A stretch of 64,000 nt of DNA, taken from positions 45,793 through 109,792 of the IMG/VR virus record IMGVR_UViG_3300037225_000328. One strand, 5' to 3'. The notes below the pieces were generated by a model, which had not been told where the DNA came from, searched no databases, and saw nothing but the letters and a program-made list of their open reading frames with translations. Of this stretch, positions 2,314 to 62,562 are shown piece by piece. Each line of letters begins with the position of its first letter. Positions within the stretch are counted from its first letter, which is position 1. Position numbers and translations under genes: made by a program. This DNA comes from a virus (taxonomy: Duplodnaviria > Heunggongvirae > Uroviricota > Caudoviricetes).

Positions 2314-2960
2314 TGAATAGCCTCCACATACCGTTGATAAAGATTTAACCGCAATAAACTAATTGTTTGTTGACTTAATCCAACTTCTTCCCCAATTTCT
2401 GCATCCGTATAACCGGCTTCTCGCAATTCAAGAATTCGCCGTTCAATAGGCGTACTAATAATAGCCTCTAATGCATCCCGGAATTCAAAATCACTCTCAG
2501 TATCAACTGGTACTCCATCCAGCGCGTCATTTGAAAATTTCACAAGTGCTTCCTTTCCTTTTTTCCAGTTTCGTATTTGTGACATCACGGGAATTGGAAT
2601 AACTGAATTTTTCATCAGCATTTCATTAACTTGTTGAAGAACGGCAACCGCCGTATAATTTAATAGTTTTGTATGGTGGACAGGTGGATCTCCAGTTATA
2701 AATTTATCAACAAGAGTGACAACTGTTAATGCCGCCTCACTTACCATATCTTCTAATTCATTCCAATTTCCGGGATATACTGCAAGTATTGTTCCAACAC
2801 ATCGTTTAGCAACTAACATTAAATACTGAATTAATAGTTCTTTTGCCTTTTGGTCGCCCCAATATATCTGTGTTACTATCTCACCCAACTTATCAGCATC
2901 GGGAACTGATGGTAAATTATCCATTAGAGGATGATTAAACATTAATGGTTCAAGTTTCAT
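2310..2960 (-). CDS. phage sigma-factor-like protein
   Basis: C-terminal region-4-like HTH (RRILELREAGYTDAEIGEEVGLSQQTISLLRLNLYQR) and a region-2-like segment (LIQYLMLVAKRCVGTILAVY...LVDKF). Confidence 0.5.
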   Translation of the reverse strand: MKLEPLMFNHPLMDNLPSVPDADKLGEIVTQIYWGDQKAKELLIQYLMLVAKRCVGTILAVYPGNWNELEDMVSEAALTVVTLVDKFITGDPPVHHTKLLNYTAVAVLQQVNEMLMKNSVIPIPVMSQIRNWKKGKEALVKFSNDALDGVPVDTESDFEFRDALEAIISTPIERRILELREAGYTDAEIGEEVGLSQQTISLLRLNLYQRYVEAIQ

Positions 2961-5501: not shown

Positions 5502-6128
5502 TCACCTATTATGTTTTCTAAGGTATTTAATTGCATTTTTAAGAACATTTATATCTTCATCAAAGAATCCCAGTGCTGCATTACATTTGTGACAAAGTAA
5601 GCCTCGAATCTTACCTGTTTTATGATTATGATCAACTGATAATCGTCGTTTAGATTTTTTACCACATATAGTACAACAATTATTTTGTTTTCTTTTTAAT
5701 TCATTGTATTGGGTTAAAGTAAGATTATAAATCTTTTTTAATCGAGATTTTTCTTTAGATTCTTTAACTTTAATCGTATTTGTTTCTCGATATCGTTTTC
5801 TATCTTGTAATCTTTGATCTCGATGTTTTTGATAGCTTTTTTGACTTGATTCTTGTCGTTCTTTTTTATGCTTATTATGATAATCTCGTTCATAATTAGA
5901 ATTCTTCTTTAATCTCTTTTTACGAGATTTTTTATTAGAAGCTCTTGATTGCTCTAAATGAGTGTCCCTATATTTACGTTTTTCTTCACTTCGTTTCTCC
6001 CGGTGTCTTGCATAAGATTCTCGATTTAAACGTCTGGTAGCCTCAAGGCGCTCTTGATGTGTATTGTAAAGTTTCTTACTCATTGAATTGTCTGATCTGT
6101 TTTTCTTGTACTTAACGGGTTGACACAT
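5502..6128 (-). CDS. HNH endonuclease, T4 endonuclease VII-like
   Basis: CTICGKK...VDHNHKTGKIRGLLCHKCNAALGFF; Lys/Arg-rich N-terminal half. Paralogous to 21904..22392. Confidence 0.65.
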   Translation of the reverse strand: MCQPVKYKKNRSDNSMSKKLYNTHQERLEATRRLNRESYARHREKRSEEKRKYRDTHLEQSRASNKKSRKKRLKKNSNYERDYHNKHKKERQESSQKSYQKHRDQRLQDRKRYRETNTIKVKESKEKSRLKKIYNLTLTQYNELKRKQNNCCTICGKKSKRRLSVDHNHKTGKIRGLLCHKCNAALGFFDEDINVLKNAIKYLRKHNR

Positions 6129-9798: not shown

Positions 9799-10315
9799 TA
9801 TTCAAAACTGCAAATTCTTTATGATATTTAATTGCCGCTTCATTATAAGCTCTTGCTGCATCTTCTTTATCATCAAAATAACCTAGATGAATTCTTTTAT
9901 GTCTATAACAAATTTGACTGTGCCATTTTTTAAGACGCCTATTCCAACTAACACCTTTATAACCAGAAGTATTATCTTTTCTAATTCCTTGATTCATTTG
10001 ACTTTGAGAATTTGTTGAAATACGCAAATTATTTCTTTGATTATTAAGTCCATTTCTATCTACATGATCAACTTTTTTACTCTCAACATCGAGATTCATT
10101 CTTTCTGCAATAACTCGATGCATTTGAATTATAATATAATTTATTTTATTAGAATGTCTGTGTGCGTAGAAAAGTTTATTATAATATTTTTCTGCATACC
10201 ACTTCCATTGCATCAAGAACTCATAATCTTGATCATCAACTAACGCAAACTTGCCTTGTGTCAATTTAATCTTTTTCATAAAGAAGCCCGAATCTCTAAT
10301 ACTTGCCGCAGCCAC
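9791..10315 (-). CDS. HNH-AP2 homing endonuclease-like protein (copy 2)
   Basis: Same HNH and AP2 architecture. About 60 bp at the 5' end are nearly identical to copy 1 (plus 571-625 vs 10201-10262). Overlaps the DNA polymerase start by 8 nt. Confidence 0.7.
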   Translation of the reverse strand: MAAASIRDSGFFMKKIKLTQGKFALVDDQDYEFLMQWKWYAEKYYNKLFYAHRHSNKINYIIIQMHRVIAERMNLDVESKKVDHVDRNGLNNQRNNLRISTNSQSQMNQGIRKDNTSGYKGVSWNRRLKKWHSQICYRHKRIHLGYFDDKEDAARAYNEAAIKYHKEFAVLNNV

Positions 10316-10349: not shown

Positions 10350-10748
10350 CTAGTCACCAGTATTAGAGTCTATAGGTTCACGGGCTGAATTCTCCCACAT
10401 TTCGTAGCTATAACCTTTTCCTCGAATACTGGCAGTGTTCACACATCCAGTAGTATAACGTCCGTCCTTCAATTTGAATATCATGTGCAAACCACGTACA
10501 ATCATACCTGCATATAGCGTGCCATCCTGATCAATACTACCGGCAAATTCAATTTGCTGCCGAGAAAATGGTCGTTTCCCCGCTCCACTGGCCCAAAGTT
10601 TATCTCCAATAGCAGTAGTAAACTCGTAGACCTGCGCCGTAGTTTCAATGTAAATAGTTGTTTCAGGTGGAAGCTTGGCAGGCTCAATTATACCTTCGGC
10701 TCGTTTTGCTTCCAAATCAGTTGGAGTTGGATATGTTGTAGGCACCAA
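10350..10748 (-). CDS. hypothetical protein
   Basis: 132-aa ORF. Confidence 0.4.
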   Translation of the reverse strand: MVPTTYPTPTDLEAKRAEGIIEPAKLPPETTIYIETTAQVYEFTTAIGDKLWASGAGKRPFSRQQIEFAGSIDQDGTLYAGMIVRGLHMIFKLKDGRYTTGCVNTASIRGKGYSYEMWENSAREPIDSNTGD

Positions 10749-11571
10749 TAAAATCCTTTACTTCTAAATTTCCTTTGTTGTATTTTATAAACATCTGTTG
10801 TAATTCGGAATCAATTTCATCGTTCGTTATCCCAAGACCGCCGGACCAAATTAACAGTTTTGCTAAAATACCTCCAAATCCATTATTAACAAGAAGTCGT
10901 AATCGTTCTTGAATATCAGCCGATGTTGGTGGTTTATAGGGATTTGTCCGAGTCTTAAACCCTTTGACAGTTCCTTTGTGACTTATGATCCGTTTAAAAA
11001 CATTAGTTCGACATTGAGCCGGGGCCGAATAAATAAGACGGATATCCGTTTGTGTAATTAATCCATTTGATGCGGCTTCTTGTATTGGCTCAGATAATTT
11101 CAAAAGCATGAAACGAATAGCCACCCAATCTCGGTGTTTTTTTATAGATGAGGCAATTCTACTATACGGAGTATTCTCTGGAAACATTCCAGCCAATCCC
11201 CGGGCCTCTTCTAATATGTTTAAATTATCTCTAGCAACATTCTCTAAAAAATTCGCAACTTTGGCATCTTCTTCGGTTAGTCCATATACTATTGTTGCTT
11301 TAATTTTTTCCATTCGCAAGATACGAGTACAGGCGGTAAAACGACGAAAACCTACGATTAACCTATAATCGTAGGTTTCTGGCATCTGAGGAACATCCGA
11401 CCGAGGTTGGACTACTATCGGAATCTGCAATCCTTTAGATTCAATTGACCGTGCTAATTCCTGCACGGATATAAGTGTAATACCCGACCGTGGGTTAAAC
11501 ATTGGTTCTAACCAGACTTTATTAACTGGAATATAATACGCCTCAGAACCAGGGACCACTTCTAAATCCAT
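10717..11571 (-). CDS. ParB/Srx-like nuclease domain protein
   Basis: ParB box II-like YRLIVGFRRFTAC. Confidence 0.5.
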   Translation of the reverse strand: MDLEVVPGSEAYYIPVNKVWLEPMFNPRSGITLISVQELARSIESKGLQIPIVVQPRSDVPQMPETYDYRLIVGFRRFTACTRILRMEKIKATIVYGLTEEDAKVANFLENVARDNLNILEEARGLAGMFPENTPYSRIASSIKKHRDWVAIRFMLLKLSEPIQEAASNGLITQTDIRLIYSAPAQCRTNVFKRIISHKGTVKGFKTRTNPYKPPTSADIQERLRLLVNNGFGGILAKLLIWSGGLGITNDEIDSELQQMFIKYNKGNLEVKDFIGAYNISNSN

Positions 11572-14439: not shown

Positions 14440-15510
14440 TTAATGGGAATCTGTCTTTCTTACAGCTAGATAATCAACTGATACCGCCTTGGCAATCAAT
14501 CGTCCGCCCATAATATCTGAATACTCTTCATGAAGCGGTGTAATTACAATACCTTCTCGACCTTTAAATGAAGAATTAACCTCATTTGAATCAACAACAG
14601 TTGTAGGACCATCAACAAGCTGGTCAACAAGTTCCGGGTAAAATGGTCCCACATATAGAACTGGAACTGTTGGAATACAAAACCGCTTACAAGCCGCTTC
14701 TACCTCTCCCCAGTTAATATAGTTACCATCTACTGCCACATCAAATACTCGATAACCACTCTGACCTTCAACTCCATAATCCATAAACTGAATCTTAGAG
14801 CCGTAGATTTCTCCAAATACAATAACATTTGGCCCATAATTTTCTGCAAAATACCAAAGCATCGCTTTCATGTCTTCTGTCAATGGGAGCCAATAAAGTG
14901 TTCGATTGCTATTGGTGTCAAATTCTTTCTTATTCGTTTTATGAGAACCACAAAAGTAATCACCACCAAGAAGCGCAACACGAGAATTCGTCCCGTGAAT
15001 TTTCTCAGTAACTCTTATAGGAGTCCCCGTCTTAAATGCCCCTTTGAATCGAGCATTTCGATAGTTTTCAATATCAGTATAGCAATGAAACCGTGGATCA
15101 CTCTTAACTTGATCCCCAGTTTTATTCCACCAAAGCGGTTCCTTTGGTTCATATTTTACCCCGTGAAATCGATCTGTTAGATCCGTCCCAGCAGGAATAT
15201 CCTGAAGTCCCAGTACAAACCCAAAAGAAGGAACTCCGCGCAAACGGGCGGCTGCCACTCGGCAGTGAGTCTTCCGGCCATCTCCTGGGTAGATTTCTGA
15301 TTTAAGATATTTATCCACGCCCAATTGAGCAGCTATTTCTTCCGGTATCAAAATATCCGGAGGAAAATATGCAACCACATCACCGGGCTTAAATTCACCC
15401 CGACCCACGATAGTTGTATATTCACCAATTGTTGCAATATCAAGACGATCCGCATTAGGATGTGGTTTTACTGCGTCAATCTGTACCGTTATAATACGAA
15501 CGTCACTCAT
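14440..15510 (-). CDS. RNA ligase, Rnl2-like
   Basis: Motif I EKIHGTN (T4 Rnl2-type lysine nucleotidyltransferase); motif IV REGIVITP. Confidence 0.6.
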   Translation of the reverse strand: MSDVRIITVQIDAVKPHPNADRLDIATIGEYTTIVGRGEFKPGDVVAYFPPDILIPEEIAAQLGVDKYLKSEIYPGDGRKTHCRVAAARLRGVPSFGFVLGLQDIPAGTDLTDRFHGVKYEPKEPLWWNKTGDQVKSDPRFHCYTDIENYRNARFKGAFKTGTPIRVTEKIHGTNSRVALLGGDYFCGSHKTNKKEFDTNSNRTLYWLPLTEDMKAMLWYFAENYGPNVIVFGEIYGSKIQFMDYGVEGQSGYRVFDVAVDGNYINWGEVEAACKRFCIPTVPVLYVGPFYPELVDQLVDGPTTVVDSNEVNSSFKGREGIVITPLHEEYSDIMGGRLIAKAVSVDYLAVRKTDSH

Positions 15511-17147
15511 TTTCTCTCCATTAATTCGTCAATTGCTGTCACAAAATACTTTGGTTCCGGCGCTTCAAACAAAACCGATAAATCTAAACTTTGAACCCGA
15601 GAAGCCATTGTGTCCCGATAAGCACGATCTGTTACCATTTTCATAATCAATTGTTCATATTCTTGTTCTGTTGTGGCAACCAATTCACTCAACCCAACTC
15701 TACGGAGCAAATACGATGCCACTCGATTATACCATTGGTTTCCTTCCCAGGTGATAACCGGAATTCCAAGGAATAAAGCATCTACTACACTATTATACCC
15801 TCCCCACGGGTATGAGTCAAGTGAAAAATGTCCATCTTCCAGATTTTTTAGGTGTTGTTGATACGGCTGATTAGGATAATAAACCGCTTGCCCCTTAAAA
15901 ATATCATCCATATCTCGTAGAAAGGGGTATGCACAATTGTATCTATTAACACCGCAGCCAGGGAAGAAATGATAAATAATAGAGATGGGTGAACAAATTT
16001 GCACATCTCGAAGCAGTTTAAGAGTTGGATAATTGTACTTTGTGACGCCCCAAGGTACATTGACAATAACCGGCTCAGAAGCTTTCTGGGGCCGCGTGGG
16101 CACGCATGGCGGCCTTTCTGGGCGACTACCGCTCCCTGGTGCCAGAATTACTTTTTCATAATAATTCATTTCCAACAAATCTAATCGTTCAGCAGATTGT
16201 CCAGTAATAAAGTAATCAATTTGTGCCCCGAATGTCGAGCCAGGATTTCCATTTCCTGTTACTTGAATTGGCGCAATTCTACAATTTGCTAACATTACGG
16301 ACTCAATTGACATTCCTATATCACAAAAATAAACAAGTTGAAAATCATTTTCATAGATTTGAGACACATCCAGTTGTTTATTTTTATATTCAACACGTTT
16401 TACATTTTTAAACAATCTGGTATCAAGACGATTATCTTCTGGCCCCAAGGCTACTAATGTTACAGTGTACTTCCGGGCTAACTCTTCAATCAAACTATAC
16501 ATCGTCTTATAAACCGCATGGCCTTCTACCCAACGATCTGCGATAAACGCAATATTATCTGCTTTAGGTGTATTAATAAACTCTGGCGCATGTCTTTGAA
16601 AACCAGCATTAATCTGGCCTCTAACAATTGGGGACATTATGGGATCAATGTAACTCCCTAAGAAATAATTAGTCGTTGAACGAGACGTTGGTTGATAACG
16701 AACATCCAAAAATGAAAGATGCCACTTACTATTTTCCCATAACAATTCTGTAGTACGTCCTGCGGCCGGTTGTAAATACATATCATACCAAAGTGATGCT
16801 AATTCGGCATCATAGTCAAAAAATTCTCGGGGATTAATTTGAATTTGATTCCGAACAGTATATAAAATCATTTGCTTTGGATATGTCTTAGGTCTAGTGC
16901 GCAAAATCTCCAGTGTGGAGTCTGTCGTTTTAAATGAAGACATTGCAATCACATTTGCCAAAACATGATTCGCCGTTAAAAGTGCAATCGCTTCATCCCG
17001 AGTCAATAGAAAATTAGGATCTGAAAATGTATGAAGAATATTTTGTGCAAGTGTGTTAATCTTAATTGCCGAGGCGGGAGATATTTTATTATAACCCACT
17101 TGGCAATAATAAAAAAGTTCGTCAAATATCTGTTTAGAGGTCAACAT
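15507..17147 (-). CDS. GT41-family (OGT/SPY/HMW1C-like) glycosyltransferase, paralog 1
   Basis: C-terminal GGYNSVVDALFLGIPVITWEGNQWYNRVASYLLRRVGLSELVATTEQEYEQL matches the OGT catalytic-lobe pattern (G.T..ALW.G.P.VT.PGE..ASRVAAS.L..LGL.ELIA...EYE). No TPRs. Confidence 0.55.
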   Translation of the reverse strand: MLTSKQIFDELFYYCQVGYNKISPASAIKINTLAQNILHTFSDPNFLLTRDEAIALLTANHVLANVIAMSSFKTTDSTLEILRTRPKTYPKQMILYTVRNQIQINPREFFDYDAELASLWYDMYLQPAAGRTTELLWENSKWHLSFLDVRYQPTSRSTTNYFLGSYIDPIMSPIVRGQINAGFQRHAPEFINTPKADNIAFIADRWVEGHAVYKTMYSLIEELARKYTVTLVALGPEDNRLDTRLFKNVKRVEYKNKQLDVSQIYENDFQLVYFCDIGMSIESVMLANCRIAPIQVTGNGNPGSTFGAQIDYFITGQSAERLDLLEMNYYEKVILAPGSGSRPERPPCVPTRPQKASEPVIVNVPWGVTKYNYPTLKLLRDVQICSPISIIYHFFPGCGVNRYNCAYPFLRDMDDIFKGQAVYYPNQPYQQHLKNLEDGHFSLDSYPWGGYNSVVDALFLGIPVITWEGNQWYNRVASYLLRRVGLSELVATTEQEYEQLIMKMVTDRAYRDTMASRVQSLDLSVLFEAPEPKYFVTAIDELMERK

Positions 17148-18990
17148 AAAATGGACCTTTATCTCGGGACTTTTGAATTAGGTTATGATTTTCTAAAATA
17201 AAATCAAAGGCTTTAACGAACCACTGAGGTTCATCATTATCACAAAGAAGCGATTTTAACCGATCTACACTAGCAACCTGCGAGCGCGCTTCTTCTAATT
17301 TTTCAGATTTAGTTAATAACTCAACTGCTTTGTCAACATATTCTTCTTGACTCTTACAAACTAAATTGCTAAGTCCTACTCTCCGTAATAAAGCCGAGGA
17401 AGCACGATTATAAAATCGGGTCCCTTCAATTGCCAGGGCCGGGCACCCAACAAAGAAACTATCTACAATAGTATTGTAACCACCAAAGGGCCAGGAGTCC
17501 AATGCAATTGTCCCTTTTTCAAGTTCAATCAAATAGTCTTCATATGGTAACTCAGGTAATAAGACAAACTCATCACCAAACATCTGAGTTAAATCACGGA
17601 TACAAGGTATCATTGAATTATACCGCCCGATAGTCCACGCAGGGAAAAGACGTACCATTGAATTTGGCACTCGGTCTAAAATTTTACGAAGATTACAAAG
17701 CATTGTATAATTTATTTTTGGACTTGTCCATGCACAATTAATAATAGGTCTCTCAAACGATGGATTTCTTCGAGTATAATTAGGAAATACAGGGTGGGCT
17801 CCCAATCCTGGAACAAGAACTAATCTCTCACTATAATTTTCAAGAGCCTTTTCAGCTACTTCTGTTTCTTGTCCACCAATATAATAGTCACACAGCGAAC
17901 CAAATGTACTCGACGGATGCCCGTAACCTGTTACCATAATTGGAGCTAAGCGAAGATTGGCTAAAATTACAGATTCATTTGACATGCCCACATCGGGGAT
18001 ATAGGCTAAATGACAATCCAGTTTTTGAAAAATAGACAAATCCAAATTACCTTTTGAAATATCTCCGGTGCAAATTACATCTTTAAATTGAGTTTTTGCA
18101 AGCGATTCACTATCAACTCCCAAATGAACCAGTGTTAAATCATATTTCTTTCCTAAAGCTTCTAATTGGTGCGCACTACTCTTATAGACCGCACTGGTAG
18201 GATACCAGCGCCCTGTAATAACTGCGATTTTTTTCTTTGATGTTTTTACTGGGGTTTTAAAATATGGGACTCTATTCCGAATTTGTTGATTCAAAACTGT
18301 TTTTATTTCTCGATCTTTTTGAGGAATAGCATACGTACAATCAAAATACGCGGGTGATGTCAATAAAAGAACCATGTTAAATTTATCAGGAATTTTAGAG
18401 TAGTGCCTAGAAATATTATCTGCTAGTAATTTTGTAGGCGAGCCACAACTAGATGCTGAGTATGTAATCCACCACAATGTTGCTAATTTAGAATTCAAAT
18501 CAAAAAATACATCCTGATTAAACATTGGCTGATTTCGGCATGAATACATTACCAAAATCTTAGCAAAATTTCCTGTTTGATGCATGATATGACGCAATAA
18601 TGAATCCGTAGTTTCATAAGAGGAAACAGCAATCAAATTTGCCATCAAATGATTCATTGTTATTAACGTAGGAATATGATTCTCTGGAATATTAAATTCA
18701 GATTGCGAAAAAATAAATAAAATAGCTGCAACAGTATCATCCAATATAGACTGGTCTACTGACCCTATACTTGTATAGCATGAAGACTCAAAATCATGCA
18801 ACATATCAATAATTCGTTTGCAAACTTCGTCAAAATTATTCTGAGAATAAAGTTGCATTAACTCTTTTCCAGTAACATGGTGGTCAAATAATTTCATTGA
18901 ACCCTCTGAATTGTTTGTTGTCTTAAAGTAAACACTGGGCAAGTAATTCCTCTGGCAGTCAATTCTAAACAAATATCCTGAGTACGCCAA
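17134..18990 (-). CDS. GT41-family glycosyltransferase, paralog 2
   Basis: Paralogous to 15507..17147 throughout (MANLIAVSSYETTDS; GGYNTIVDSFFVGCPALAIEGTRFYNRASSALLRRVGLSNLVCKSQEEY). The true start is probably the ATG at 18897, just after the methyltransferase stop. Confidence 0.55.
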   Translation of the reverse strand: MAYSGYLFRIDCQRNYLPSVYFKTTNNSEGSMKLFDHHVTGKELMQLYSQNNFDEVCKRIIDMLHDFESSCYTSIGSVDQSILDDTVAAILFIFSQSEFNIPENHIPTLITMNHLMANLIAVSSYETTDSLLRHIMHQTGNFAKILVMYSCRNQPMFNQDVFFDLNSKLATLWWITYSASSCGSPTKLLADNISRHYSKIPDKFNMVLLLTSPAYFDCTYAIPQKDREIKTVLNQQIRNRVPYFKTPVKTSKKKIAVITGRWYPTSAVYKSSAHQLEALGKKYDLTLVHLGVDSESLAKTQFKDVICTGDISKGNLDLSIFQKLDCHLAYIPDVGMSNESVILANLRLAPIMVTGYGHPSSTFGSLCDYYIGGQETEVAEKALENYSERLVLVPGLGAHPVFPNYTRRNPSFERPIINCAWTSPKINYTMLCNLRKILDRVPNSMVRLFPAWTIGRYNSMIPCIRDLTQMFGDEFVLLPELPYEDYLIELEKGTIALDSWPFGGYNTIVDSFFVGCPALAIEGTRFYNRASSALLRRVGLSNLVCKSQEEYVDKAVELLTKSEKLEEARSQVASVDRLKSLLCDNDEPQWFVKAFDFILENHNLIQKSRDKGPFYVDL

Positions 18991-20123
18991 GGGGTTGTAA
19001 TAACAATCGCATCAGGTTTAATTTGCTCTATATCACCAGCATATCGAATCAACTGCCCGGTGCCGGGAACAAAACGACCAGCTTTATTTTTGTCTGAGTC
19101 AATTACGATAGGAAACTGGTCGCAATTAATACTAAACAAATTTAAAAATGTTGCGCCTTTTCCAGTGCCACCCCAAAACGCCAAGACTGGATATTCTTTT
19201 TGAAGTTGTGCTAAAGCCACTGGAACATTAGTAAGCTGACTTTGCCATTTATCTTCAAAGGCGTCAAATCTTTTCTTTATCACTTTAATGCCAAAATTAG
19301 AAGGTGTTACACAGGCTACTAGAACTTCTCCAGAATAATATGAATCCACACTATTAAGTACATAACTTGATGTACTTAACATTGTAGAGAGACTTCGACA
19401 ATTAAAATTAGACACATGTTCATATAAATAGTCGCCGCACCGCCCTAACTCCAAGGCATGGCTAAAACTAGGAACTTCATAAATACAAACAGGTTTCAAA
19501 TCATATTGTAGACTCCAATAGGCAATCTCAGCAATAAAGTCTCTTGGCTGTTCTAAATGTTCAATAACATGCCGACAAACAATTAAACCCGGTTGATATC
19601 GCTTTATATCTCGTTCAGGAACAAAATAGTCTTGTACTACTTCAAAATCAGTAATCTTCTTTGCTTCAATACCAGGCTCGAAACCCAAAAATTTTTCATC
19701 GGGTGCCCACTTCTTTAATAACGAAAAGAATTGACCATCGCCACAGCCAATATCAATAGCAACTTTATTATGCCATACATCTCGGTATTTAAACGCCAGT
19801 CGCCCAATATCACATAAATGTTCTTGCCATGCTCCGCCATTATTATACATTAAATTGGAATCCTCAGCGTAGGGGATTCTAGTATAATCAAATTGAATAT
19901 TCCACACATGCCCACAAAAGGCACACATTCTAAAATCCATTGGATACCGCAAAGCCTCAATCGCATCAATTTGACTTCGGGGCAAATTTAACGCTGCCAA
20001 TGGTTGTGGCCCGGGGTTAAAAAGAGGGTATGAAGTGGCGTGGCCGCAGGCGATGCATCTCATAATAATCCTCAATACTTTCTGCAATAACTTGTGGCGA
20101 TAAACTTTGCCATTGCTTTCCAT
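18894..20123 (-). CDS. SAM-dependent methyltransferase, sugar C-methyltransferase-like three-domain architecture
   Basis: N-terminal Zn-ribbon (CIACGH...CAFCGHVW). SAM motif I DIGCGDGQFF. C-terminal Methyltransf_14-like domain, as in TylCIII-family deoxysugar 3-C-methyltransferases. Confidence 0.55.
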   Translation of the reverse strand: MESNGKVYRHKLLQKVLRIIMRCIACGHATSYPLFNPGPQPLAALNLPRSQIDAIEALRYPMDFRMCAFCGHVWNIQFDYTRIPYAEDSNLMYNNGGAWQEHLCDIGRLAFKYRDVWHNKVAIDIGCGDGQFFSLLKKWAPDEKFLGFEPGIEAKKITDFEVVQDYFVPERDIKRYQPGLIVCRHVIEHLEQPRDFIAEIAYWSLQYDLKPVCIYEVPSFSHALELGRCGDYLYEHVSNFNCRSLSTMLSTSSYVLNSVDSYYSGEVLVACVTPSNFGIKVIKKRFDAFEDKWQSQLTNVPVALAQLQKEYPVLAFWGGTGKGATFLNLFSINCDQFPIVIDSDKNKAGRFVPGTGQLIRYAGDIEQIKPDAIVITTPWRTQDICLELTARGITCPVFTLRQQTIQRVQ

Positions 20124-21884: not shown

Positions 21885-21912
21885 ATTATACCATCTCAAA
21901 CGGCTAAGTCAA
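21885..21912 (-). promoter_or_regulatory. sigma70-consensus promoter TTGACT-N16-TGgTATAAT
   Basis: Minus strand reads ctcTTGACTtagccgtttgagaTGgTATAATgtaa. The -35 lies at plus 21907-21912 and the -10 at plus 21885-21890, with a 16-nt spacer and an extended TG. Confidence 0.6.
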
Positions 21913-22392
21913 GAGATTTTTTCTTGATTTTATTTCTTCATCAGTAGGTTGTGAAGTATTTTGATCTAAATATTCGGCTGCCTTTCTTAAAAGCGTTGAA
22001 TTATCTTGAAATTGTCCTAATCCAAAATTACATCGACCACACAAAAGTCCGCGAACTTTTTTAGTTAAATGATCATGATCAACAAGAAAATTAGTATTAT
22101 ATTTACCCAACGGTAATTTGCTGCCACAAATAGCACAAACTCCATTTTGCTTTTTAAGCATAATATTATATTCTTGTAAAGTGGTATCGAAATTCTTTTT
22201 TAATTCTCTGTTACGGCCAATATCTGGATTTTCTTTGTTATACTTTTTAACACGTTGTTTTATTTTTTCCTTATGTCGTTGATAATGTTCTGCTTTTTGA
22301 ATTTTTAAACATGTTTTACAATATACATTCCTATAATCTCTATTAGAGTCTGTCAATAAAATTCCACATCTGGCACAGCCTTTTTCTTTCAT
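21904..22392 (-). CDS. HNH endonuclease, T4 endonuclease VII-like (second copy)
   Basis: CAICGSK...VDHDHLTKKVRGLLCGRCNFGLGQF. Confidence 0.65.
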   Translation of the reverse strand: MKEKGCARCGILLTDSNRDYRNVYCKTCLKIQKAEHYQRHKEKIKQRVKKYNKENPDIGRNRELKKNFDTTLQEYNIMLKKQNGVCAICGSKLPLGKYNTNFLVDHDHLTKKVRGLLCGRCNFGLGQFQDNSTLLRKAAEYLDQNTSQPTDEEIKSRKNLLT

Positions 22393-23564
22393 TGATATCC
22401 CCGTAACCAGTGTTCATCCGGTTTATCATGAAGTTCATACCAACCTTTCCCGTATAAATCTTGTAGTCGCTCAAAGTATGTTTGATATTGCCATTTTACA
22501 TTTTCCATTGAATAGAGTTTCACAGCCCTGTCGTGAGTATACTGTCTATCGAGTAATGGTACATTCCGCGCTGCATGGCAAAATTCATTCAGCGTGTGAC
22601 AACGAAATCCAGTGCGGCCATGTTCAACAGTTTCAGTAAAAGCCCCAAAATCTGTTGTGATAGCCGGCGTCCCGGCCATTTGTGATTCCACTGCGACCGC
22701 CCCGAAGGGCTCGATATATATGGTACTAATAAATGTACCTATAGCATTCTGATACAATTCGGCGCGTTTATTACCAGTGGCAAAACCTACATATTCTAAA
22801 TTATCACCTTCATAAACTGCACCGTCAGCACAGAAAATCTTATTCCCTTCAACCTTAGTGCAACCCTGTCCTGCAAGCTTCAATTTGACTCCGAGATTCT
22901 TGCAAGTTTCAACTGCGATGTGAATTCCTTTTCTCCGGATAAGTCGGCCAAGATATAGGTAATAATCTCCTTTTTTAAGTTGGAGAGGATAATCATCTGG
23001 ATTCAGATAATTAGGAATTACTGCATCATAGAGATGGCCATCAGGGTCATAACCACCTTGCGCACCCCATATCTTGTGCATATGAGAATAAGACTCAAAC
23101 ACACGATACTTAGTAAAAGTTCCATTATAACCAATGCCGTATTCAACAGCCATAAGTTCAGGAAGAGCATCTGCTACCGGCTTGCCAATTGTTCCGTTCA
23201 TTATACACAAGAAGTCCCCTGGCTTACAACGGCGCTTAATCGCTGCACTAGCGCGGGCATTCATCAGCTTCCAGTATTCAGCATTTCCAGACCAATCGAC
23301 TTCGTATAAGGCGTCGGGATTGTATTTACCAAAGTAACTTTCTTGTTCATTCTTTGACAAAATTTGAACGTGTTCGTCACATTCAGGGTTACTCCCTTCA
23401 ACTCCATAGTGAAATACCGTGTGGCCTAGAGATTTCATCATAGCACAAAAATGAAAAATCTTCATCGTGAAGGCGCACGCAGAGTGACTCATATTTGTGA
23501 CAGTGTGTGGTAGCGCAGGCACGTGAAATCTAAATGACTTTATCATGTATAACTCCTTCTTCAA
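22389..23564 (-). CDS. GT-B glycosyltransferase (GT4/GT1-like)
   Basis: EX7E-type motif EPFGAVAVESQMAGTPAITTDFGAFTETVEHGRTGF. Confidence 0.6.
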   Translation of the reverse strand: MKKELYMIKSFRFHVPALPHTVTNMSHSACAFTMKIFHFCAMMKSLGHTVFHYGVEGSNPECDEHVQILSKNEQESYFGKYNPDALYEVDWSGNAEYWKLMNARASAAIKRRCKPGDFLCIMNGTIGKPVADALPELMAVEYGIGYNGTFTKYRVFESYSHMHKIWGAQGGYDPDGHLYDAVIPNYLNPDDYPLQLKKGDYYLYLGRLIRRKGIHIAVETCKNLGVKLKLAGQGCTKVEGNKIFCADGAVYEGDNLEYVGFATGNKRAELYQNAIGTFISTIYIEPFGAVAVESQMAGTPAITTDFGAFTETVEHGRTGFRCHTLNEFCHAARNVPLLDRQYTHDRAVKLYSMENVKWQYQTYFERLQDLYGKGWYELHDKPDEHWLRGYQ

Positions 23565-28488: not shown

Positions 28489-28674
28489 CTACTCTTCATC
28501 AATCGCGTGACCATATGCTGCAATAAATATATTTTGCTCAGTTGCTAAATCAGTTAATTGTCTCCGCAACCTAGCAATTGATTCTGTCTCCCAATTCTTT
28601 AAGTTACATTGTTTTGCTAATTTTCTTACTTCCCGAGTAGACAACTCTTCAATGATACTTTCAGGATTCTTCAT
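28489..28674 (-). CDS. small SAP/Rho_N-like protein
   Basis: LSTREVRKLAKQCNL. Confidence 0.35.
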   Translation of the reverse strand: MKNPESIIEELSTREVRKLAKQCNLKNWETESIARLRRQLTDLATEQNIFIAAYGHAIDEE

Positions 28675-29626
28675 TTAATGACTCTTGTATTGGTAGTTGT
28701 TGAATTAATTCATCATCCTGGCGATCCCGGCGGTCAGCCGTCCGATTTGCTATTTTAACTTGTTGTTCTTGAAATTTATCCTGGGCTCGTTTTATCTGAG
28801 CCACCATGCTATCAGGATCTAAGTGCAAAACCCATGCCAAAGCTAGGTTCCAGGCATCTAATGGTTTAGTTATATTATTTTTTACTAACAAAACTGGACC
28901 TAATAACTGATGTTTATGTTCTGCAACAATAACTCTATAAAACTGAAGATAGGGGTGTGGTTCAAAATGTGTTTTATAGAAATTACCAACCCGTTCTTCT
29001 ACGCGCTTACTCTTATACCCCCGCAACTGTTCACTACAAAAACGAGAAAATTCATTTGCTGGTTTTACAATTGCATCTTCCTCTAAATCGACTTGCATCC
29101 ATTTAGGAAGTTTAGCTAACATATAAGCAGAAGTAATAGGAATCTCGCCTCTATCGACCCTCTTTCCAATCTCAGAAATAAGATTTAACAATCCTAACAT
29201 TTTCTTAATCCAAGCTGGAGACTTACGTATATCTTTAGATAAACCAGCAAATGTCATTTTTGGATCCGCCATGAAAATTCGTTTCATTTGATTTGCAAAT
29301 GAAACGGGCTTTGTCATCTGTTTTATTGCATTTGCTTGTAATTGTATTCTAAGAACTTCGGCATCATCTGCTTCAACTATAATTGCAGGAATAAATTCAA
29401 GTTCTAAGTCTTTATAACATAACCAACGTTTCATTCCATCAACAATCTCATAACGATCTTCTTGGCGATTTGATGGTCTAACACAAATTGAATTGATTAA
29501 ACCAAAATCCTTAATCGAATCCCTAAGCTCCAAATAAGCAAGTGACTTTTTGTTTACCAACCGCATAAGTAAATATGGTTGAAAAATAATTTTCACTGGG
29601 ATCAATTCAACTCGTTCATTTGGCAT
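28661..29626 (-). CDS. ParB-like nuclease/partition-domain protein
   Basis: N-terminal ParB-like block (SICVRPSNRQEDRYEIVDGMKRW). Promoter and SD (ctcct at 29635-29639) lie immediately upstream. Confidence 0.5.
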   Translation of the reverse strand: MPNERVELIPVKIIFQPYLLMRLVNKKSLAYLELRDSIKDFGLINSICVRPSNRQEDRYEIVDGMKRWLCYKDLELEFIPAIIVEADDAEVLRIQLQANAIKQMTKPVSFANQMKRIFMADPKMTFAGLSKDIRKSPAWIKKMLGLLNLISEIGKRVDRGEIPITSAYMLAKLPKWMQVDLEEDAIVKPANEFSRFCSEQLRGYKSKRVEERVGNFYKTHFEPHPYLQFYRVIVAEHKHQLLGPVLLVKNNITKPLDAWNLALAWVLHLDPDSMVAQIKRAQDKFQEQQVKIANRTADRRDRQDDELIQQLPIQESLNEES

Positions 29627-29640
29627 ACAATTTTCTCCTA

Positions 29641-30069
29641 TACTACTTATGATACCATTTTGCCTCTCTTTACCAATAGAATCTAAAAATTTTTTGAGAA
29701 TCTTTTTGATTACATCTTATAGGGTATTTACTCTTCCCTAATAAGTCATATTATTTTTTACTTAATCTTTCAACAGTTAAGTCACAACTTGTTTTTATAA
29801 AAGAGAGTTATGTCATTAGAAGCCGAATTAACTATCTCTCAGACTACAACCAGTAGAAATAAAAATCAAATAAAGTTATATTATATATAGGAGATAATAC
29901 AGAAAATAGTTATTTTTCAAAATAATGCTATAACTTGATTCTATAACTAGATTTAGAATCCGCCTGTTGAATAATGAAGTAAATACCCTATAAGATGTAG
30001 TCAAAAAGATTCTCAAAAAAATCCAAGAATTCATTGGTACCAACCTATGAAATGGTATCATAAGTAGTA
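29641..30069. promoter_or_regulatory. symmetric inverted-repeat region with divergent promoters (candidate ori or centromere-like site)
   Basis: Perfect 20-bp inverted repeat tactacttatgataccattt (29641-29660) and aaatggtatcataagtagta (30050-30069). The arms extend to about 90 bp and include a 41-bp block with one mismatch. Each arm carries an outward-facing TTGGTA-N16-TGgTATCAT promoter. The central roughly 250 bp are very AT-rich. Confidence 0.55.
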
Positions 30070-30105
30070 TAGACCAAGAACCTGATATTGTAGCCGAGAA
30101 GTAAT

Positions 30106-32835
30106 ATGCCCAAAGTATCTGATGCAATAAAAACGTTTCTATCTCGTATCCATCATAATTGTCCAGAGATGGCGGCTTGGTACACTGATGGTATGGAGGT
30201 TCAGATAATGGCTGCCGCTGATAAAGGTGAGCCGGTAGCAGGTAAACGTAATACATGGAGTGATGGTATTACCGAATGGGGACATATTCGATTACCAAAA
30301 AATGCCGATACTGAACCTGTGGACAATGACTATGAGATGCGATGGCCTCTTCATGAGCATGTTGACTATATCGGTATGACGGGTTGGTGTTATAAAAATA
30401 AACGTTCGATTCGAGTAGGTTTCGATTTTGATTCAATTATGGGGCACGCTAATGGAGTTGGTGTCACCGATGATGAACTTTTAAGAGTTAGAGCCGCCGT
30501 TGAAAAAATACCCCAAGCGTGGTTATTTTACAGCACGGGTGGGTCGGGTCTTCACTTATATCTACCCTTCGATCCTGATAACGCCCCTGAAACAGTAAAC
30601 CACCATGAACATGCGGCACTTGCAAGATCCTGTTTAGGAGTTCTTTCTAACCTTGTAAACTATCCATTTGAAGCTGCTTTGGATGTTTGTGGTGGAAATA
30701 TGTGGATTTGGGGTCGTAAGATGACAAGTGATAATCACGGATTATCACTTATCAAGAAAGGCGAAGGATTCTTTGAACCGCCGCTTCATTGGCGAGATCA
30801 TATTTCTGTTGTTACTCGCAAACGAACAAAGATTCAAATTCACGGTGTGCCTGATGGTGAAGAAACAGATGTTGAAAATATGGCTGCCAGTCGTCGGTTG
30901 ATTCCTTTAGATGCAACACACCGTAAAATTATTGAAGAACTTCAAACACTTAATTATTCAACTTACTGGGTTGATGATCACAATATGCTTCAAACCCATA
31001 CTTGTGCTTTAAAAGAAGTGTTTAAAAGATTTGCAGAGCGTGGTGATCCATTACACGGTCAATATGACACATTGAGTGATGGCACGGACCCTGGAAAGCC
31101 AAATTGTTTTGCCTTTGCCTGCCTTGATGGTGTTTTTAAAGTTATTAGGTATGGAGAAAATAAATCTACGGAGCATGTCACATGGAGTAAAGACAATAAA
31201 GGAAGGGCATATTGTTATTTCAATCAAAAATTAGATTTAAACATTGCTGCCACGATTTTTGGTGGAATGGAAAATGCCTCCCGGGGTGGAGGCTATACTT
31301 TTCCAACAGCAGAAGAAGCTTTGGGAGCTATCAAGTCTCTCGGTTCATCATTTGATATACCCGCACAATTGGTGGGAAAACCCACAACGTTAAGAACACA
31401 TAAGGATGGTCGAGTAGTTGTTGAAATCAAAGCTAAAACAGATGATCCTGTCCCAGGTTTTATTCAAGAACGTGGTAAATTTGTAAAGCTTTTGAATGTC
31501 CAAGCAAGGCCAACTGCCGAAGATGATGAAAAAGTTGAAAAATTTGATTTGGAAACTTTAGATCAAATGGTTAGGGCACTTCTGACTGTAAATTTGGATG
31601 AGGCCGGTTGGGCTTTATACGACTCTGAATTTAATCATTGGACAAGACAAACAAAAGATAATATTCGATCGGCGCTTAAAGCTAAAAACTTTGACTCTGA
31701 CGCTACGGAAAAGATTATGGGGCACTCGGTAATGAAAGCTTGGTCCTTAGTAAATATACCATTTGCTGATGAACAACCTGGTAATCGACAGTGGAATATT
31801 AATGCGGCTCAGTTTCGTTTTGCTCCGACACCATATCCTGATGATATGACATCAATGCACCCCCACTGGGATTTAATTTTAGAACATTGTGGTGAAGATT
31901 TAACGCAAGCATTAAAACATAGTGAGTGGGCGCGTAAGAATAGTGTCTCAACTGGAAAAGATTATCTACTATATTGGATTGCTTCAATGTTTCGCAATCC
32001 CTTTGATCGACTGCCCTACCTATTCTTTTTTGGTCCACAGAATTCAGGAAAATCAATATTTCATGAAGCAATAGCACTTCTTGTAAAAGATGAAGTAGGT
32101 GTACAACCAGCCGATCAAGCTTTGACAAATCCTAATGGATTCAACGGTGAACTAGCAAACACCTTCTTATGTGTTGTTGAAGAAACAAACTTATCGAAAG
32201 AAAAATCGGCAGCATATAATAGAATCAAAGAGTGGACAATGGCTTTAATGATGTCTATTCATCCAAAGCGAATGCAAGTTTACAAACAACGAAATACAAC
32301 TCACTGGATTCAGTGTGCAAATGAAAGAACATACTGTCCTATTTTTCCAGGGGATACTCGTATAACAATGTCTTATGTGGGACCACTTGAAAGAGAAATT
32401 CCAAAGGATCAATTGATTAAGTTATTGGAGGCTGAAGCACCATATTTCATGGCGACTATATTATCTATTAAGTTGCCAGAAGCAGATGGTCGAGCAAAAA
32501 TCCCGGCTTTAATGACGGGCAGCAAAGAACAAGCGGCGTCTGCAAATCGAAATCCTTTGGAAGCATATTTAGAAGATATATGCCACCACTCACCCGGTTC
32601 CTTTATGTCTTTCAATGAGTTTATTGAACATTTTATGGATTCATTGCCATCAGTAGATCGGCCTCAATGGAATGAGCGGCGTATTCTTCAAGAATTACCA
32701 AATCAATACCCATCTGGACATTATAAAAAAGATAATAAGATTTATATCGGTAATGTATCTTTTACAAAACCCGAAGATTCACTAACACATAAGTTTATTT
32801 TTGAAAATGGACAATTGGAAAGGGTGCTATTGTGA
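30106..32835 (+). CDS. D5-like primase-helicase (prim-pol N-terminus plus SF3/P-loop NTPase C-terminus)
   Basis: Walker A FFFGPQNSGKS; Walker B FLCVVEE. The large N-terminal domain is typical of phage/plasmid primase-helicases. Confidence 0.6.
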   Translation: MPKVSDAIKTFLSRIHHNCPEMAAWYTDGMEVQIMAAADKGEPVAGKRNTWSDGITEWGHIRLPKNADTEPVDNDYEMRWPLHEHVDYIGMTGWCYKNKRSIRVGFDFDSIMGHANGVGVTDDELLRVRAAVEKIPQAWLFYSTGGSGLHLYLPFDPDNAPETVNHHEHAALARSCLGVLSNLVNYPFEAALDVCGGNMWIWGRKMTSDNHGLSLIKKGEGFFEPPLHWRDHISVVTRKRTKIQIHGVPDGEETDVENMAASRRLIPLDATHRKIIEELQTLNYSTYWVDDHNMLQTHTCALKEVFKRFAERGDPLHGQYDTLSDGTDPGKPNCFAFACLDGVFKVIRYGENKSTEHVTWSKDNKGRAYCYFNQKLDLNIAATIFGGMENASRGGGYTFPTAEEALGAIKSLGSSFDIPAQLVGKPTTLRTHKDGRVVVEIKAKTDDPVPGFIQERGKFVKLLNVQARPTAEDDEKVEKFDLETLDQMVRALLTVNLDEAGWALYDSEFNHWTRQTKDNIRSALKAKNFDSDATEKIMGHSVMKAWSLVNIPFADEQPGNRQWNINAAQFRFAPTPYPDDMTSMHPHWDLILEHCGEDLTQALKHSEWARKNSVSTGKDYLLYWIASMFRNPFDRLPYLFFFGPQNSGKSIFHEAIALLVKDEVGVQPADQALTNPNGFNGELANTFLCVVEETNLSKEKSAAYNRIKEWTMALMMSIHPKRMQVYKQRNTTHWIQCANERTYCPIFPGDTRITMSYVGPLEREIPKDQLIKLLEAEAPYFMATILSIKLPEADGRAKIPALMTGSKEQAASANRNPLEAYLEDICHHSPGSFMSFNEFIEHFMDSLPSVDRPQWNERRILQELPNQYPSGHYKKDNKIYIGNVSFTKPEDSLTHKFIFENGQLERVLL

Positions 32836-32989: not shown

Positions 32990-33388
32990 TTGTATCGAGG
33001 AGTTAGTATGAATGAATTTCAAATGGCCGATAGTGGAGCACATCAATCCTTTGGTGAAGGACGAGCAATTCGAGATACCCCAACGAATAAACCTCGACCT
33101 GACCTGATCTCGCCGTTCGCTGAAGAGCGCCAAGGACACTGGCTCCGCATGGGCGCAGCAAAGTACGCCGAAAGGAACTGGGAGAAGGGGATGCCGTTCT
33201 CCCGTTGCGTGGCCTCCCTCAAGCGGCACGTCATGCGTTACCAGCAGGGGATGCGCGACGAGGACCATTTGGCCGCCATCATGTTCAACGCGATGGCCCT
33301 AATCCACTATGAGGAGATGATCGAACGGGGCGTGCTGCCAGCGGAACTCAACGATATGCCGACTTATCAATTATCGGAGAAATCCTAA
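32990..33388 (+). CDS. MazG-like dATP/dGTP pyrophosphohydrolase domain protein
   Basis: GAAKYAERNWEKG...LKRHVMRYQQG.RDEDHLAAIMFNAMAL fits the phage dNTP-PPase (MazG-like all-alpha) pattern. The 3' half is markedly GC-rich. Confidence 0.45.
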   Translation: MYRGVSMNEFQMADSGAHQSFGEGRAIRDTPTNKPRPDLISPFAEERQGHWLRMGAAKYAERNWEKGMPFSRCVASLKRHVMRYQQGMRDEDHLAAIMFNAMALIHYEEMIERGVLPAELNDMPTYQLSEKS

Positions 33389-33606
33389 TGGATTCAAAGC
33401 TTGCTAGACAGTTTATTGCTGGAAGTTTTGCGGATTTTTTAATCTTTCTTGCTGCACTTCCGGATCCAATTATTGTTGGAGGAACTTATCCGAGAAATAA
33501 GTTAATGCAGGCATTTCAAAGTTGGACTGAAATTAGAGATTTTAATACAAATAATGCCGATCTCTCAGCATGGAGAACAGCTTGCAGCCAGGGTGTGTTA
33601 AAATGA
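33388..33606 (+). CDS. hypothetical protein
   Basis: 72-aa ORF; ATGA overlap with the upstream gene. Confidence 0.35.
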   Translation: MDSKLARQFIAGSFADFLIFLAALPDPIIVGGTYPRNKLMQAFQSWTEIRDFNTNNADLSAWRTACSQGVLK

Positions 33607-34082
33607 AACAAATTCCACTCACACAAGGCAAGCTTACTTTAGTAGATGATCAAGATTATGATTTCTTGATGCAATGGAAATGGCATATTCAAAAAAGTCA
33701 CAAAACAATTTATGCGATACGAACTGATAATTTCAATCACACAACAATTCGGATGCATCGTATTATTGCAAAAAGAATGAGATTAGAAGGACATATAGAT
33801 CATAAAGATCAAAATGGATTAAATAATCAACGGGATAATTTGCGATTTGCGACAAACTCTCAACAAGGTGCAAACCAAAAGAAGCATAACAATAATACAT
33901 CAGGGTATAAGGGTGTCTATTGGAGAAAAGATAATCATAAATGGAGGGTAGAAATTAATGTCAATGGAAAAAGAATAAATTTAGGTTGTTTTGAAAATTC
34001 TAAAGATGCAGCAAGAGCTTATAATGAAGCAGCTATAAAATATCATGGTGAGTTTGCTGTTTTAAATGAGGTAATATTATGA
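33570..34082 (+). CDS. HNH-AP2 homing endonuclease-like protein (copy 3)
   Basis: IPLTQGKLTLVDDQDYDFLMQWKWH...IDHKDQNGLNNQRDNLRFATNSQ...AP2 domain. ATGA overlap with the DnaQ start. Confidence 0.7.
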   Translation: MENSLQPGCVKMKQIPLTQGKLTLVDDQDYDFLMQWKWHIQKSHKTIYAIRTDNFNHTTIRMHRIIAKRMRLEGHIDHKDQNGLNNQRDNLRFATNSQQGANQKKHNNNTSGYKGVYWRKDNHKWRVEINVNGKRINLGCFENSKDAARAYNEAAIKYHGEFAVLNEVIL

Positions 34083-54241: not shown

Positions 54242-54439
54242 TTACTTAACGGTATTATAGGTGTTTGTATCACCAGAAACATCGCCACCACGAGGGCCAA
54301 TGTCGCCTTCTTCTTTTTCCTCTGCGGGAGTTTCTCGAAGATTTTCTACTGGGGGCATCGCATAAGCTTCAAATCCTTCAAAGGGATTAGAACGTAATGC
54401 ACCCTCTGGTTTGTCCGCAGTAACAGTTCTCCAGTCCAT
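54242..54439 (-). CDS. small acidic protein
   Basis: 65-aa ORF. Confidence 0.3.
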   Translation of the reverse strand: MDWRTVTADKPEGALRSNPFEGFEAYAMPPVENLRETPAEEKEEGDIGPRGGDVSGDTNTYNTVK

Positions 54440-56901: not shown

Positions 56902-62103
<5,202 letters not shown>

Positions 62104-62534: not shown

Positions 62535-62562
62535 TTGACTTTTAAGTAATTTATGATATACT
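62535..62562 (+). promoter_or_regulatory. sigma70-like promoter TTGACT-N16-TATACT for the plus-strand HNH-AP2 gene
   Basis: -35 at 62535-62540 and -10 at 62557-62562. The SD aggag at 62568-62572 precedes the likely true ATG at 62580. Confidence 0.4.

Follow-up and report, generated by a model that had tools for sequence, protein, structure and literature searches.

The 64,000-nucleotide stretch of caudoviricete phage DNA analysed here (IMG/VR record IMGVR_UViG_3300037225_000328, positions 45,793–109,792; hereafter the window) carries a 430-bp inverted repeat in the non-coding gap (29627–30105) between a ParB-like gene on the minus strand and a primase-helicase gene on the plus strand. An earlier note, made from the sequence alone, had described this symmetric element and its place between the two genes, and our analysis confirmed it with small corrections. 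The region is the divergence point of a 29.5-kb leftward and a 4.6-kb rightward gene block, and mirrored sequences recur at the same place in a clade of metagenomic relatives. We tentatively read the element as a composite of twin outward promoter/operator arms and an iteron-type replication origin in the centre, an interpretation whose chances we place slightly short of even.

The repeat is composed of two arms of 95 nt each (29638–29732 and 29978–30072; 82% identity overall; previously given as about 90 bp) that flank a 245-bp centre. The perfect terminal inverted repeats identified by the repeat finder, 29638–29660 (CTATACTACTTATGATACCATTT) and 30050–30072, measure 23 bp rather than the 20 bp of the earlier note. 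The 23-mer has only these two matches in the 64 kb at up to three mismatches, with none expected by chance. Further inward, the repeat finder returned an inverted repeat of 62 nt and 87% identity (29671–29732 and 29978–30039). Within it lies a block that differs between the arms at one position only (T/C at 29710/30000), as had been noted, and that extends over 42 bp rather than 41 bp; its copies at 29690–29731 (plus strand) and 29979–30020 (minus strand) are the only two in the 64 kb, again against none expected. The arms form a mosaic in which perfectly conserved segments alternate with fully diverged ones, a pattern that argues for selection on the arms. The centre (29733–29977) is 74.7% AT, compared with 59.3% for the window, and corresponds to the AT-rich core of roughly 250 bp described before.

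Independent assemblies from other samples match this sequence: Logan contigs L008 and L010 cover it from 29635 onward with zero mismatches, and contigs L001–L004 cover the left flank up to 29662–29774. In all, three independent assemblies reproduce the sequence, and it is not an assembly artefact. Folding of the region as single-stranded DNA gives one long hairpin (z = -11), an outcome to be expected of any repeat of this kind. An Rfam scan of the region gave only a sub-threshold match to potC (21.7 bits against a gathering score of 44), and no support was found for the small open reading frames (ORFs) of 26–35 aa in the centre. We rejected a miniature inverted-repeat transposable element or other transposable element, since the ends lack a target-site duplication (flanks ...CTC and ACC...), the element is single-copy in the 64 kb and its position is syntenic across the clade. 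A hairpin telomere serving as a protelomerase target was rejected as well, given that the centres are not palindromic and that no protelomerase was recognised among the ORFs scanned.

Each arm contains an outward-pointing promoter-like site, TTGGTA-N16-TGgTATCAT, present as reported earlier when N16 is taken as the hexamer-to-hexamer spacer; 13 nt of it lie ahead of the TG. In the left site (29649–29676, minus strand) the -35 hexamer TTGGTA occupies 29676–29671 and the -10 hexamer TATCAT 29654–29649; the right site (30034–30061, plus strand) shows the same TTGGTA, 16-nt spacer, TG and TATCAT. Both arms display the features of a sigma-70 extended -10 promoter, namely the -35 element, a spacer (16 nt) within the 16–18 nt of this class, a -10 element with A at position 2 and T at position 6, and TG one base upstream of it. 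The left terminal box (29638–29660, minus strand; outward reading AAATGGTATCATAAGTAGTATAG) extends over the TG and the -10 hexamer to roughly +1 to +6, and its outer end runs into the Shine-Dalgarno sequence of the ParB-like gene (TATAGGAG); the right terminal box (30050–30072, plus strand) is the same perfect 23-mer. From the left site, the predicted transcript start lies about 15–20 nt before the ParB ATG and would give a short leader beginning at the Shine-Dalgarno sequence; for the right site, the predicted leader covers about 38–45 nt before the primase-helicase ATG. The left 42-bp block falls at about -46 to -87 from the predicted start and contains an inward-pointing TCTTATAGGGT; the block may be bound by a protein, as an operator or an activator site. 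The two arms agree fully in the -35 hexamer and in the TG/-10/+1 region, while their 10-nt spacer cores are unrelated (1/10 identical), which is the pattern expected for promoters under selection.

Extended -10 sites number eight in the 64 kb, and only four good ones stand in front of genes, the left-arm site among them; a generic promoter scan of this AT-rich stretch was not above chance (6 found, 6.6 expected). The TG-extended design TTGACT-N13-TGnTATAAT/TATACT precedes two further gene blocks (21912–21885 and 62535–62562). The first of these (minus strand, TTGACT-N13-TGgTATAAT) is the promoter that the 20-mer had been said to resemble. The likeness holds but is modest, consisting of a shared TGGTATNAT with the 23-mer and about 7/10 of the downstream bases once a 1-nt gap is allowed. 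The strong promoter at 62535–62562 sits directly ahead of an HNH-AP2 gene. Two other promoter classes were considered and rejected. A promoter for a T7-type RNA polymerase, an idea taken from the ...TATAGG(G)AG endings, failed on the lack of a phage RNA polymerase among the scanned ORFs, on a box that occurs only twice and on a superficial likeness; a sigma-54 reading of the TGGCA... boxes failed on inspection, as the -12 GC element is absent.

INPHARED returned nothing for the primase in DNA and protein searches and only weak matches to the ParB-like protein (25–30% identity), IMG/VR gave nothing by protein or by a 36-mer of the block, and PLSDB held no relative, whereas the primase-helicase has hundreds of metagenomic homologues. 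We compared 80 JGI loci, 27 loci from GTDB genomes and several contigs from exact protein look-up. The order ParB-like gene (minus), intergenic region, primase-helicase (plus) is a conserved module in about 75 metagenomic loci and loci of Planctomycetota metagenome-assembled genomes (MAGs), and nearly every locus with enough upstream DNA has the divergent ParB-like gene. The GTDB relatives of the primase-helicase (L092–L118) lie almost all in Planctomycetota MAGs (Pirellulales, Planctomycetaceae, Thermoguttaceae and Gemmataceae). Some of them are embedded in contigs of 0.5–6.6 Mb, so at least the distant relatives are prophage-like and integrated. The Planctomycetota link applies to these relatives, and the phage in the window has 39% GC.

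In 45 of the 62 non-redundant loci, sequence upstream of the ParB-like gene recurs reverse-complemented upstream of the primase gene. These mirrored boxes were called at a score of at least 14, and the best of 20 dinucleotide shuffles per locus was never above 14. Each of the 45 loci has its box exactly twice in the DNA analysed and only in this intergenic region, and the box is thus not a general phage promoter. In most loci the left box stops 0–30 nt short of the ParB start codon, whereas the right box usually ends 25–130 nt ahead of the primase start; this placement beside the start codons persists between genomes whose proteins are 40% identical. Several loci below the threshold have strong inverted repeats farther from the ParB-like gene, with extra coding sequence in between (86 nt at 99% identity in L013, 290 nt at 94% in L052 and 167 nt in L018). 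Where the intergenic region is compact (130–220 nt), the whole of it forms one palindrome of 72–90 bp (L066, L084, L051, L065, L056, L087 and L055), in which a short variable segment separates an outer box from an inner palindrome, such as TTTTCAGA-N5-TCTGAAAA in L084 and TTTCTAAG-N4-CTTAGAAA in L056.

The boxes themselves differ from genome to genome and have only a loose common core, T-R-T-A-R-G / TATAGG; a Gibbs motif search over them yielded nothing beyond the weak core T-R-T-A-R-G (7.9 bits). TATAGG is the 6-mer most often common to the relatives' boxes and is enriched in the intergenic region, whose 479 bp contain four of the 24 copies in the window. Among 22 related pairs of loci, mirrored differences outnumber one-arm differences by 63 to 34, which indicates that the arms evolve in concert. 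In the GTDB loci, a palindrome-aware finder run over the 600 nt that precede the primase detected the repeat in 10 of 13 loci with the ParB-like gene and in 1 of 8 loci without it (Fisher p=0.0075, for a small sample of phylogenetically related loci). The symmetry accordingly appears tied to the divergent ParB-like gene rather than to the primase alone. The shared operator proposed in the earlier note gains strength from this association, short of proof, and mirrored boxes lie at both candidate promoters, that of the ParB-like gene included. The feature conserved across the clade is a genome-specific box at the ParB start codon and not a standard promoter; such a box would be compatible with an operator, a leader or an initiation site that a phage protein recognises.

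Concerted change and very long near-perfect arms in some relatives would also be produced by a palindrome that intramolecular recombination keeps homogeneous, with a centre that may invert and arms that no protein recognises by sequence. Assemblies from four samples all break inside the repeat. The first 33 nt of ENA contig L009 join 12 nt that are the reverse complement of 29732–29743 to the right-arm block with the right-arm single-nucleotide variant (compared with 29711–29743 and 29979–30000). This junction represents either an inverted or gene-converted variant or an assembler artefact of a 33-mer; the 12 nt and the 21 shared nt add up to 33, a k-mer size used by SPAdes. Its 12 nt are the sole hint of another orientation, as expected of an invertible switch. 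The mosaic of perfectly conserved and fully diverged arm segments argues for selection instead, the boxes keep their place beside the start codons over large protein distances, and no recombinase or invertase gene was found in the window. With a junction so short that it could be artefactual, we consider recombination as the sole cause of the symmetry very unlikely.

The contig breaks could alternatively mark a physical end of the genome, with the left box as a terminus or a place of cleavage: a cos site, a nick site or a short terminal repeat. Two unrelated SRA runs have Logan contigs that stop at 29662 (L001 and L002) and others that begin at 29635 (L008 and L010), giving a 28-nt overlap that comprises the 23-mer and 3 and 2 flanking bases. 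For a Logan graph, presumably built with k=31, the overlap should be 30 nt (k-1), and the 28 nt look like dead ends or variant junctions beside the left box and not like a simple repeat-induced branch. Such a dead-end pattern would suit a terminus; yet the window and other assemblies continue across the site without interruption, contigs do not break at the right copy of the box, an end at this position would part the ParB-like gene from its promoter, and no terminase gene was recognised near the region or anywhere in the window. We therefore give a genome end hardly any credence.

The ParB-like gene (28661–29626, minus strand) is the first gene of the leftward block and encodes 321 aa with a ParB N-terminal domain and a ParB-type helix-turn-helix (HTH). 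Pfam ParB_N is matched at E=5.9e-13 and HTH_ParB is borderline (22.4 bits against a cut-off of 22.6), whereas residues 4–190 match Spo0J, Noc, ParB and KorB in the PDB by sequence at E values of 1.6e-9 to 1.6e-4. The earlier identification of the two neighbours as a ParB-like gene and a primase-helicase is upheld by these domains and by the primase and helicase domains described below. The interior of the ParB-like gene (29278–29308) harbours a perfect 11-bp inverted repeat (CGTTTCATTTG ... CAAATGAAACG), a terminator-like hairpin on both strands. A second ParB-like gene (10717–11571, minus strand; 284 aa, ParB_N and HTH_ParB) is located in the leftward block beside an HNH-AP2 gene and has no box-like sequence nearby.

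A ParB-family gene next door invites the view, raised in the earlier note, that the repeats are a centromere, a parS-like site through which a partition system would maintain the phage in plasmid form. Large asymmetric sites of this kind exist, as in P1, where parS is an array of short boxes around a bend site. In the present case, no ParA-type ATPase was identified among about 55 ORFs scanned in the 64-kb window, no match to the canonical parS TGTTNCACGTGAAACA occurs at up to three mismatches in 29627–30105, and the CTP-binding motif in box II of the protein is degenerate. The relatives, too, are integrated in Mb-sized Planctomycetota contigs and thus not plasmid-like, with none in PLSDB. A centromere is accordingly highly improbable. 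In a non-coding gap of the structural block (54266–54281) there is a parS-like near-palindrome, TGTATCACCAGAAACA, that agrees with canonical parS at 13/16 positions and may be due to chance.

ParB-family proteins are also known as transcription regulators on mobile elements (PMC11790492; PMC10770331; PMC12409273). The window resembles the loci of KorB, VirB and BisD, the ParB-family CTP clamps of plasmids and integrative and conjugative elements, in several ways: a mobile element encodes an HTH protein of the ParB family, the window yielded no ParA, and repeated sites occupy the protein's own predicted promoter region as well as that of replication genes. In plasmid RK2, KorB controls trfA, among other operons. 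Unlike KorB operators, which are 13-bp palindromes at 12 places of the plasmid, the boxes here are asymmetric, 23–42 bp in length and exactly two in number, and form a long-range mirror pair; moreover, the CTP-binding motif is not conserved and a KorA-like partner is not known here. The layout can likewise be compared with the divergent loci of TetR, MerR and LysR regulators, in which the regulator gene diverges from its target. The compact relatives L084 and L056 share a central palindrome with such loci. In contrast to those, the symmetry spans the entire promoter region up to the start codons and not the operator alone, and in the window the halves have been pushed apart by the 245-bp iteron-bearing insert.

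The AT-rich centre contains seven AGTTA(A/T) hexamers (29775+, 29806+, 29828-, 29874+, 29908+, 29930- and 29943-) and a TATATATAGG core near 29880–29891. The shuffle mean is 1.09 and none of 1000 shuffles reached seven, although the motif was picked after the relatives had been seen; the cluster is the densest of this motif in the 64 kb. The three closest relatives (62–66% primase identity) have iteron-like repeats in the same intergenic region. L006 contains 12 AGTTAA, with three in tandem on one strand (5658/5667/5676, minus), an AT-rich palindromic core of ~70 bp and three in tandem on the other strand (5751/5760/5769, plus); L012 contains 11 AGTTAA, including runs spaced 11–12 bp; and L005 contains six AGTTGT(TTT) in symmetric pairs. 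In Staphylococcus aureus pathogenicity islands (SaPIs), the origins consist of 6–12 penta- or hexanucleotide iterons in two oppositely directed groups on either side of an AT-rich region, and one hexamer of the Rep helicase loads itself on each side (PMC9371898). L006 reproduces this halved arrangement around an AT-rich region, the window has seven degenerate hexamers in a 75% AT centre, and the presumed initiator is a primase-helicase of the same fold class as those of SaPI and PriRep origins. The iteron-like hexamers, the SaPI-like layout of L006 and the initiator class encoded next door together make plausible an origin, as suggested in the earlier note, with the centre as the candidate origin and DNA-unwinding region. 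The SaPI site differs in being situated just downstream of rep, whereas the site here is upstream of the initiator and between divergent operons; in addition, neither the mirrored promoter-like arms nor the ParB-like partner gene has a counterpart in SaPIs.

Nucleotide skew was rejected as an origin marker. Raw GC skew merely tracks gene direction. At four-fold degenerate sites, plus-strand skew is -0.146 for 0–29.6 kb and +0.219 for 35–62 kb, two blocks that are both coded on the minus strand, and the bootstrap 95% interval of the difference excludes zero. This polarity is as expected from an origin between the two blocks, but the four-fold-site minimum is too broad to pinpoint one.

The primase-helicase gene (30106–32835, plus strand) encodes 909 aa with an AEP N-terminal part, a D5/NrS-1-type SF3 helicase (DUF5906) and a small alpha/beta domain. 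The N-terminal part shows AEP-type motifs, DxD (107–109) and STGGSGLH (143–150), with residues invariant in 65 homologues, and the C-terminal part matches Pfam DUF5906. The AlphaFold2 model (predicted local distance difference test 89) was compared with known structures by Foldseek, which returned the NrS-1 C-terminal region (E=1.5e-12), African swine fever virus PrimPol, monkeypox virus E5, the SaPI5 primase-helicase (E=4.7e-9; 7ola and 7pds among the SaPI/PriRep matches) and PriRep1 with double-stranded DNA (E=6e-7). By hhalign, the protein aligns to the NrS-1 gp28 helicase at a probability of 91%. On the basis of the predicted fold, the product is an AEP-primase/SF3-helicase of the self-loading initiator class.

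A helicase of this type raises the question of whether the whole element is simply an origin palindrome, a loading pad for two opposed SF3 hexamers or a pair of priming sites, with an incidental likeness to promoters. The fold matches proteins solved as head-to-head double hexamers or dodecamers (9im3 and 8ww7), iterons and an AT-rich core are present, and in the compact relatives the entire region of 72–90 bp is one palindrome. That length is about the footprint of a double hexamer at simian virus 40 (SV40) and papillomavirus origins, where two hexamers load in opposite orientation. The core origins of SV40 large T antigen and papillomavirus E1 are indeed similar in that a mirror-symmetric site adjoins AT-rich DNA, and the palindromes of the compact relatives are of comparable size. 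They differ in that the halves in the window are 245 bp apart, which is too far for a single double hexamer, that pairs of recognition motifs within the halves are not evident and that the symmetry is gone in relatives without the ParB-like gene. The last point is telling, since an origin required by the helicase should persist, yet 7 of 8 such loci lack the repeat ahead of the primase gene; nor would an origin need a left box tied to the ParB start codon, as seen in most loci. The recognition site of the NrS-1 primase is TTTGGTTA (PMC8718748). It is found exactly at the box ends of one subclade (L051, L087 and L114) and with one mismatch in L065, which provides a weak lead. It is not enriched across the family, where the distribution of best matches equals that of shuffles, and the NrS-1 genome contains it once against 1.8 expected. 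Overall, we regard an origin palindrome without regulatory arms as unlikely, albeit well above the other alternatives in standing.

For the composite reading, the sequence comparisons establish the anatomy of the element, its conservation and uniqueness in the clade, the concerted evolution of its arms, its co-occurrence with the ParB-like gene, the enrichment of iterons and the fold class of the initiator; from these we infer promoter activity, ParB binding and origin function as follows. The whole element, structured as a long-range palindrome, would be the complete control region of a conserved module of divergent replication genes. Each arm would serve one outward transcription unit, in this genome through a host-type extended -10 promoter, with the left arm driving the ParB-like gene and the 29-kb replication and DNA-metabolism block and the right arm driving the primase-helicase operon. 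The 23-bp -10/+1 box and the 42-bp upstream block may have been kept identical because a single phage DNA-binding protein reads both sides. The likeliest reader would be the HTH protein of the ParB-like gene, as an autoregulator comparable to KorB, VirB or BisD, so that both operons would be switched together. The centre, with AGTTA(A/T) in both orientations, would be the origin at which the self-loading primase-helicase assembles in the way known from SaPI origins, and its opening could be assisted by transcription that leads outward from the arms.

Several observations weigh against this interpretation. Sigma-70 hexamers are not recognisable at the homologous positions of L005, L006, L012 or the GC-rich relatives; the TATCAT of the window aligns with CCTCAT (L005) and CGTCAT (L012), and the GC-rich relatives have no consistent, correctly spaced pair of sigma-70-like -35 and -10 elements. 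The promoter assignment may hold for this lineage only, or the boxes may be operators or leaders and not promoter cores; the hosts of the relatives may also use other promoter consensus sequences. Gene conversion, rather than selection, could keep the arms alike, considering that some relatives have arms of 86–290 nt at 94–99% identity. Box II of the ParB-like protein reads DGMKRW (DGMKRWLC in the window) in place of the CTP-binding motif GERRxRA, and only DGxxR is conserved in this box among 59 homologues. Box similarity correlates equally with ParB and primase identity (Spearman 0.18–0.21), with ParB, primase and boxes co-diverging, and covariation therefore does not say which protein reads the boxes. 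In the centre, the hexamers of the window are degenerate, and their orientations (+ + - + + - -) are not cleanly symmetric. Finally, the cumulative skew minimum is a broad plateau at about 27–38 kb, the strongest values stem from capsid genes and codon bias is a confounder.

A wider hypothesis extends the composite reading to the clade. Throughout an uncultured group, many members of which are associated with Planctomycetota, genome-specific mirrored boxes read by a ParB-family protein that has lost its partition role would bracket an iteron origin and gate both transcription and helicase loading; boxes and protein would co-evolve and thereby give each phage a private replication "lock". We consider this possible but on balance rather improbable. 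The ingredients, namely divergent promoters, iteron origins beside Pri-Rep-type initiators and ParB-family regulators, are known already, whereas our literature search found no description of their combination, above all of a clade-wide, genome-specific, long-range mirror pair tied to a ParB gene. If the composite reading is right, the start of replication and the early switch would become accessible from sequence in a widespread group of uncultured phages and prophages, and phages would join the growing number of cases in which a ParB-family protein serves regulation and not partition. The mirrored boxes offer an easy signature for finding the module in metagenomes and a testable case of co-evolution between a protein and its DNA site, and short-read assemblies of these phages break predictably at the repeat.

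A further element was observed in the 5' leader of the primase gene of GC-rich relatives (L024, L026, L049, L045, L046, L051 and L048), which have in common a 12-bp sequence, GCGTGTAAACGC, between the right box and the primase ribosome-binding site. The element is inverted (GCGTTTACACGC) in L045, L046 and L051 and absent from the window. Its occurrence in either orientation points to a DNA-level site rather than an RNA hairpin.

The window as a whole represents a siphovirus-like phage. Its products include DNA polymerase A, a ligase, exonucleases, an SNF2 helicase and several glycosyltransferases, along with a tape-measure protein, a major head protein and a collagen-like fibre. The ORFs scanned in the 64 kb revealed no RNA polymerase, no ParA and no integrase. 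A 216-aa protein (2310–2960, minus strand) gives weak, sub-threshold matches to GerE/LuxR-type HTH and sigma-70 region 4 and is a possible phage transcription factor. The replication block includes a gene with a MazZ-like dATP/dGTP diphosphohydrolase domain (32990–33388), three glycosyltransferase genes and a C-methyltransferase-like gene (15507–18990, 22389–23564 and 18894–20123). This combination is suggestive of modified DNA; the ORFs scanned included no PurZ-like gene. Four genes resemble HNH-AP2 homing endonucleases (150–638, 9791–10315, 33570–34082 and 62553–63071), the fourth of which matches AP2 only, and two others are endonuclease VII genes (5502–6128 and 21904–22392). The collagen-like tail-fibre gene (56902–62103, minus strand; 1733 aa) forms a stretch of 49–56% GC, compared with about 39% elsewhere, and contains three copies of the 16-mer TGTTACAGGTGTTACA, spaced 918 and 912 bp apart, which indicates large internal repeats.

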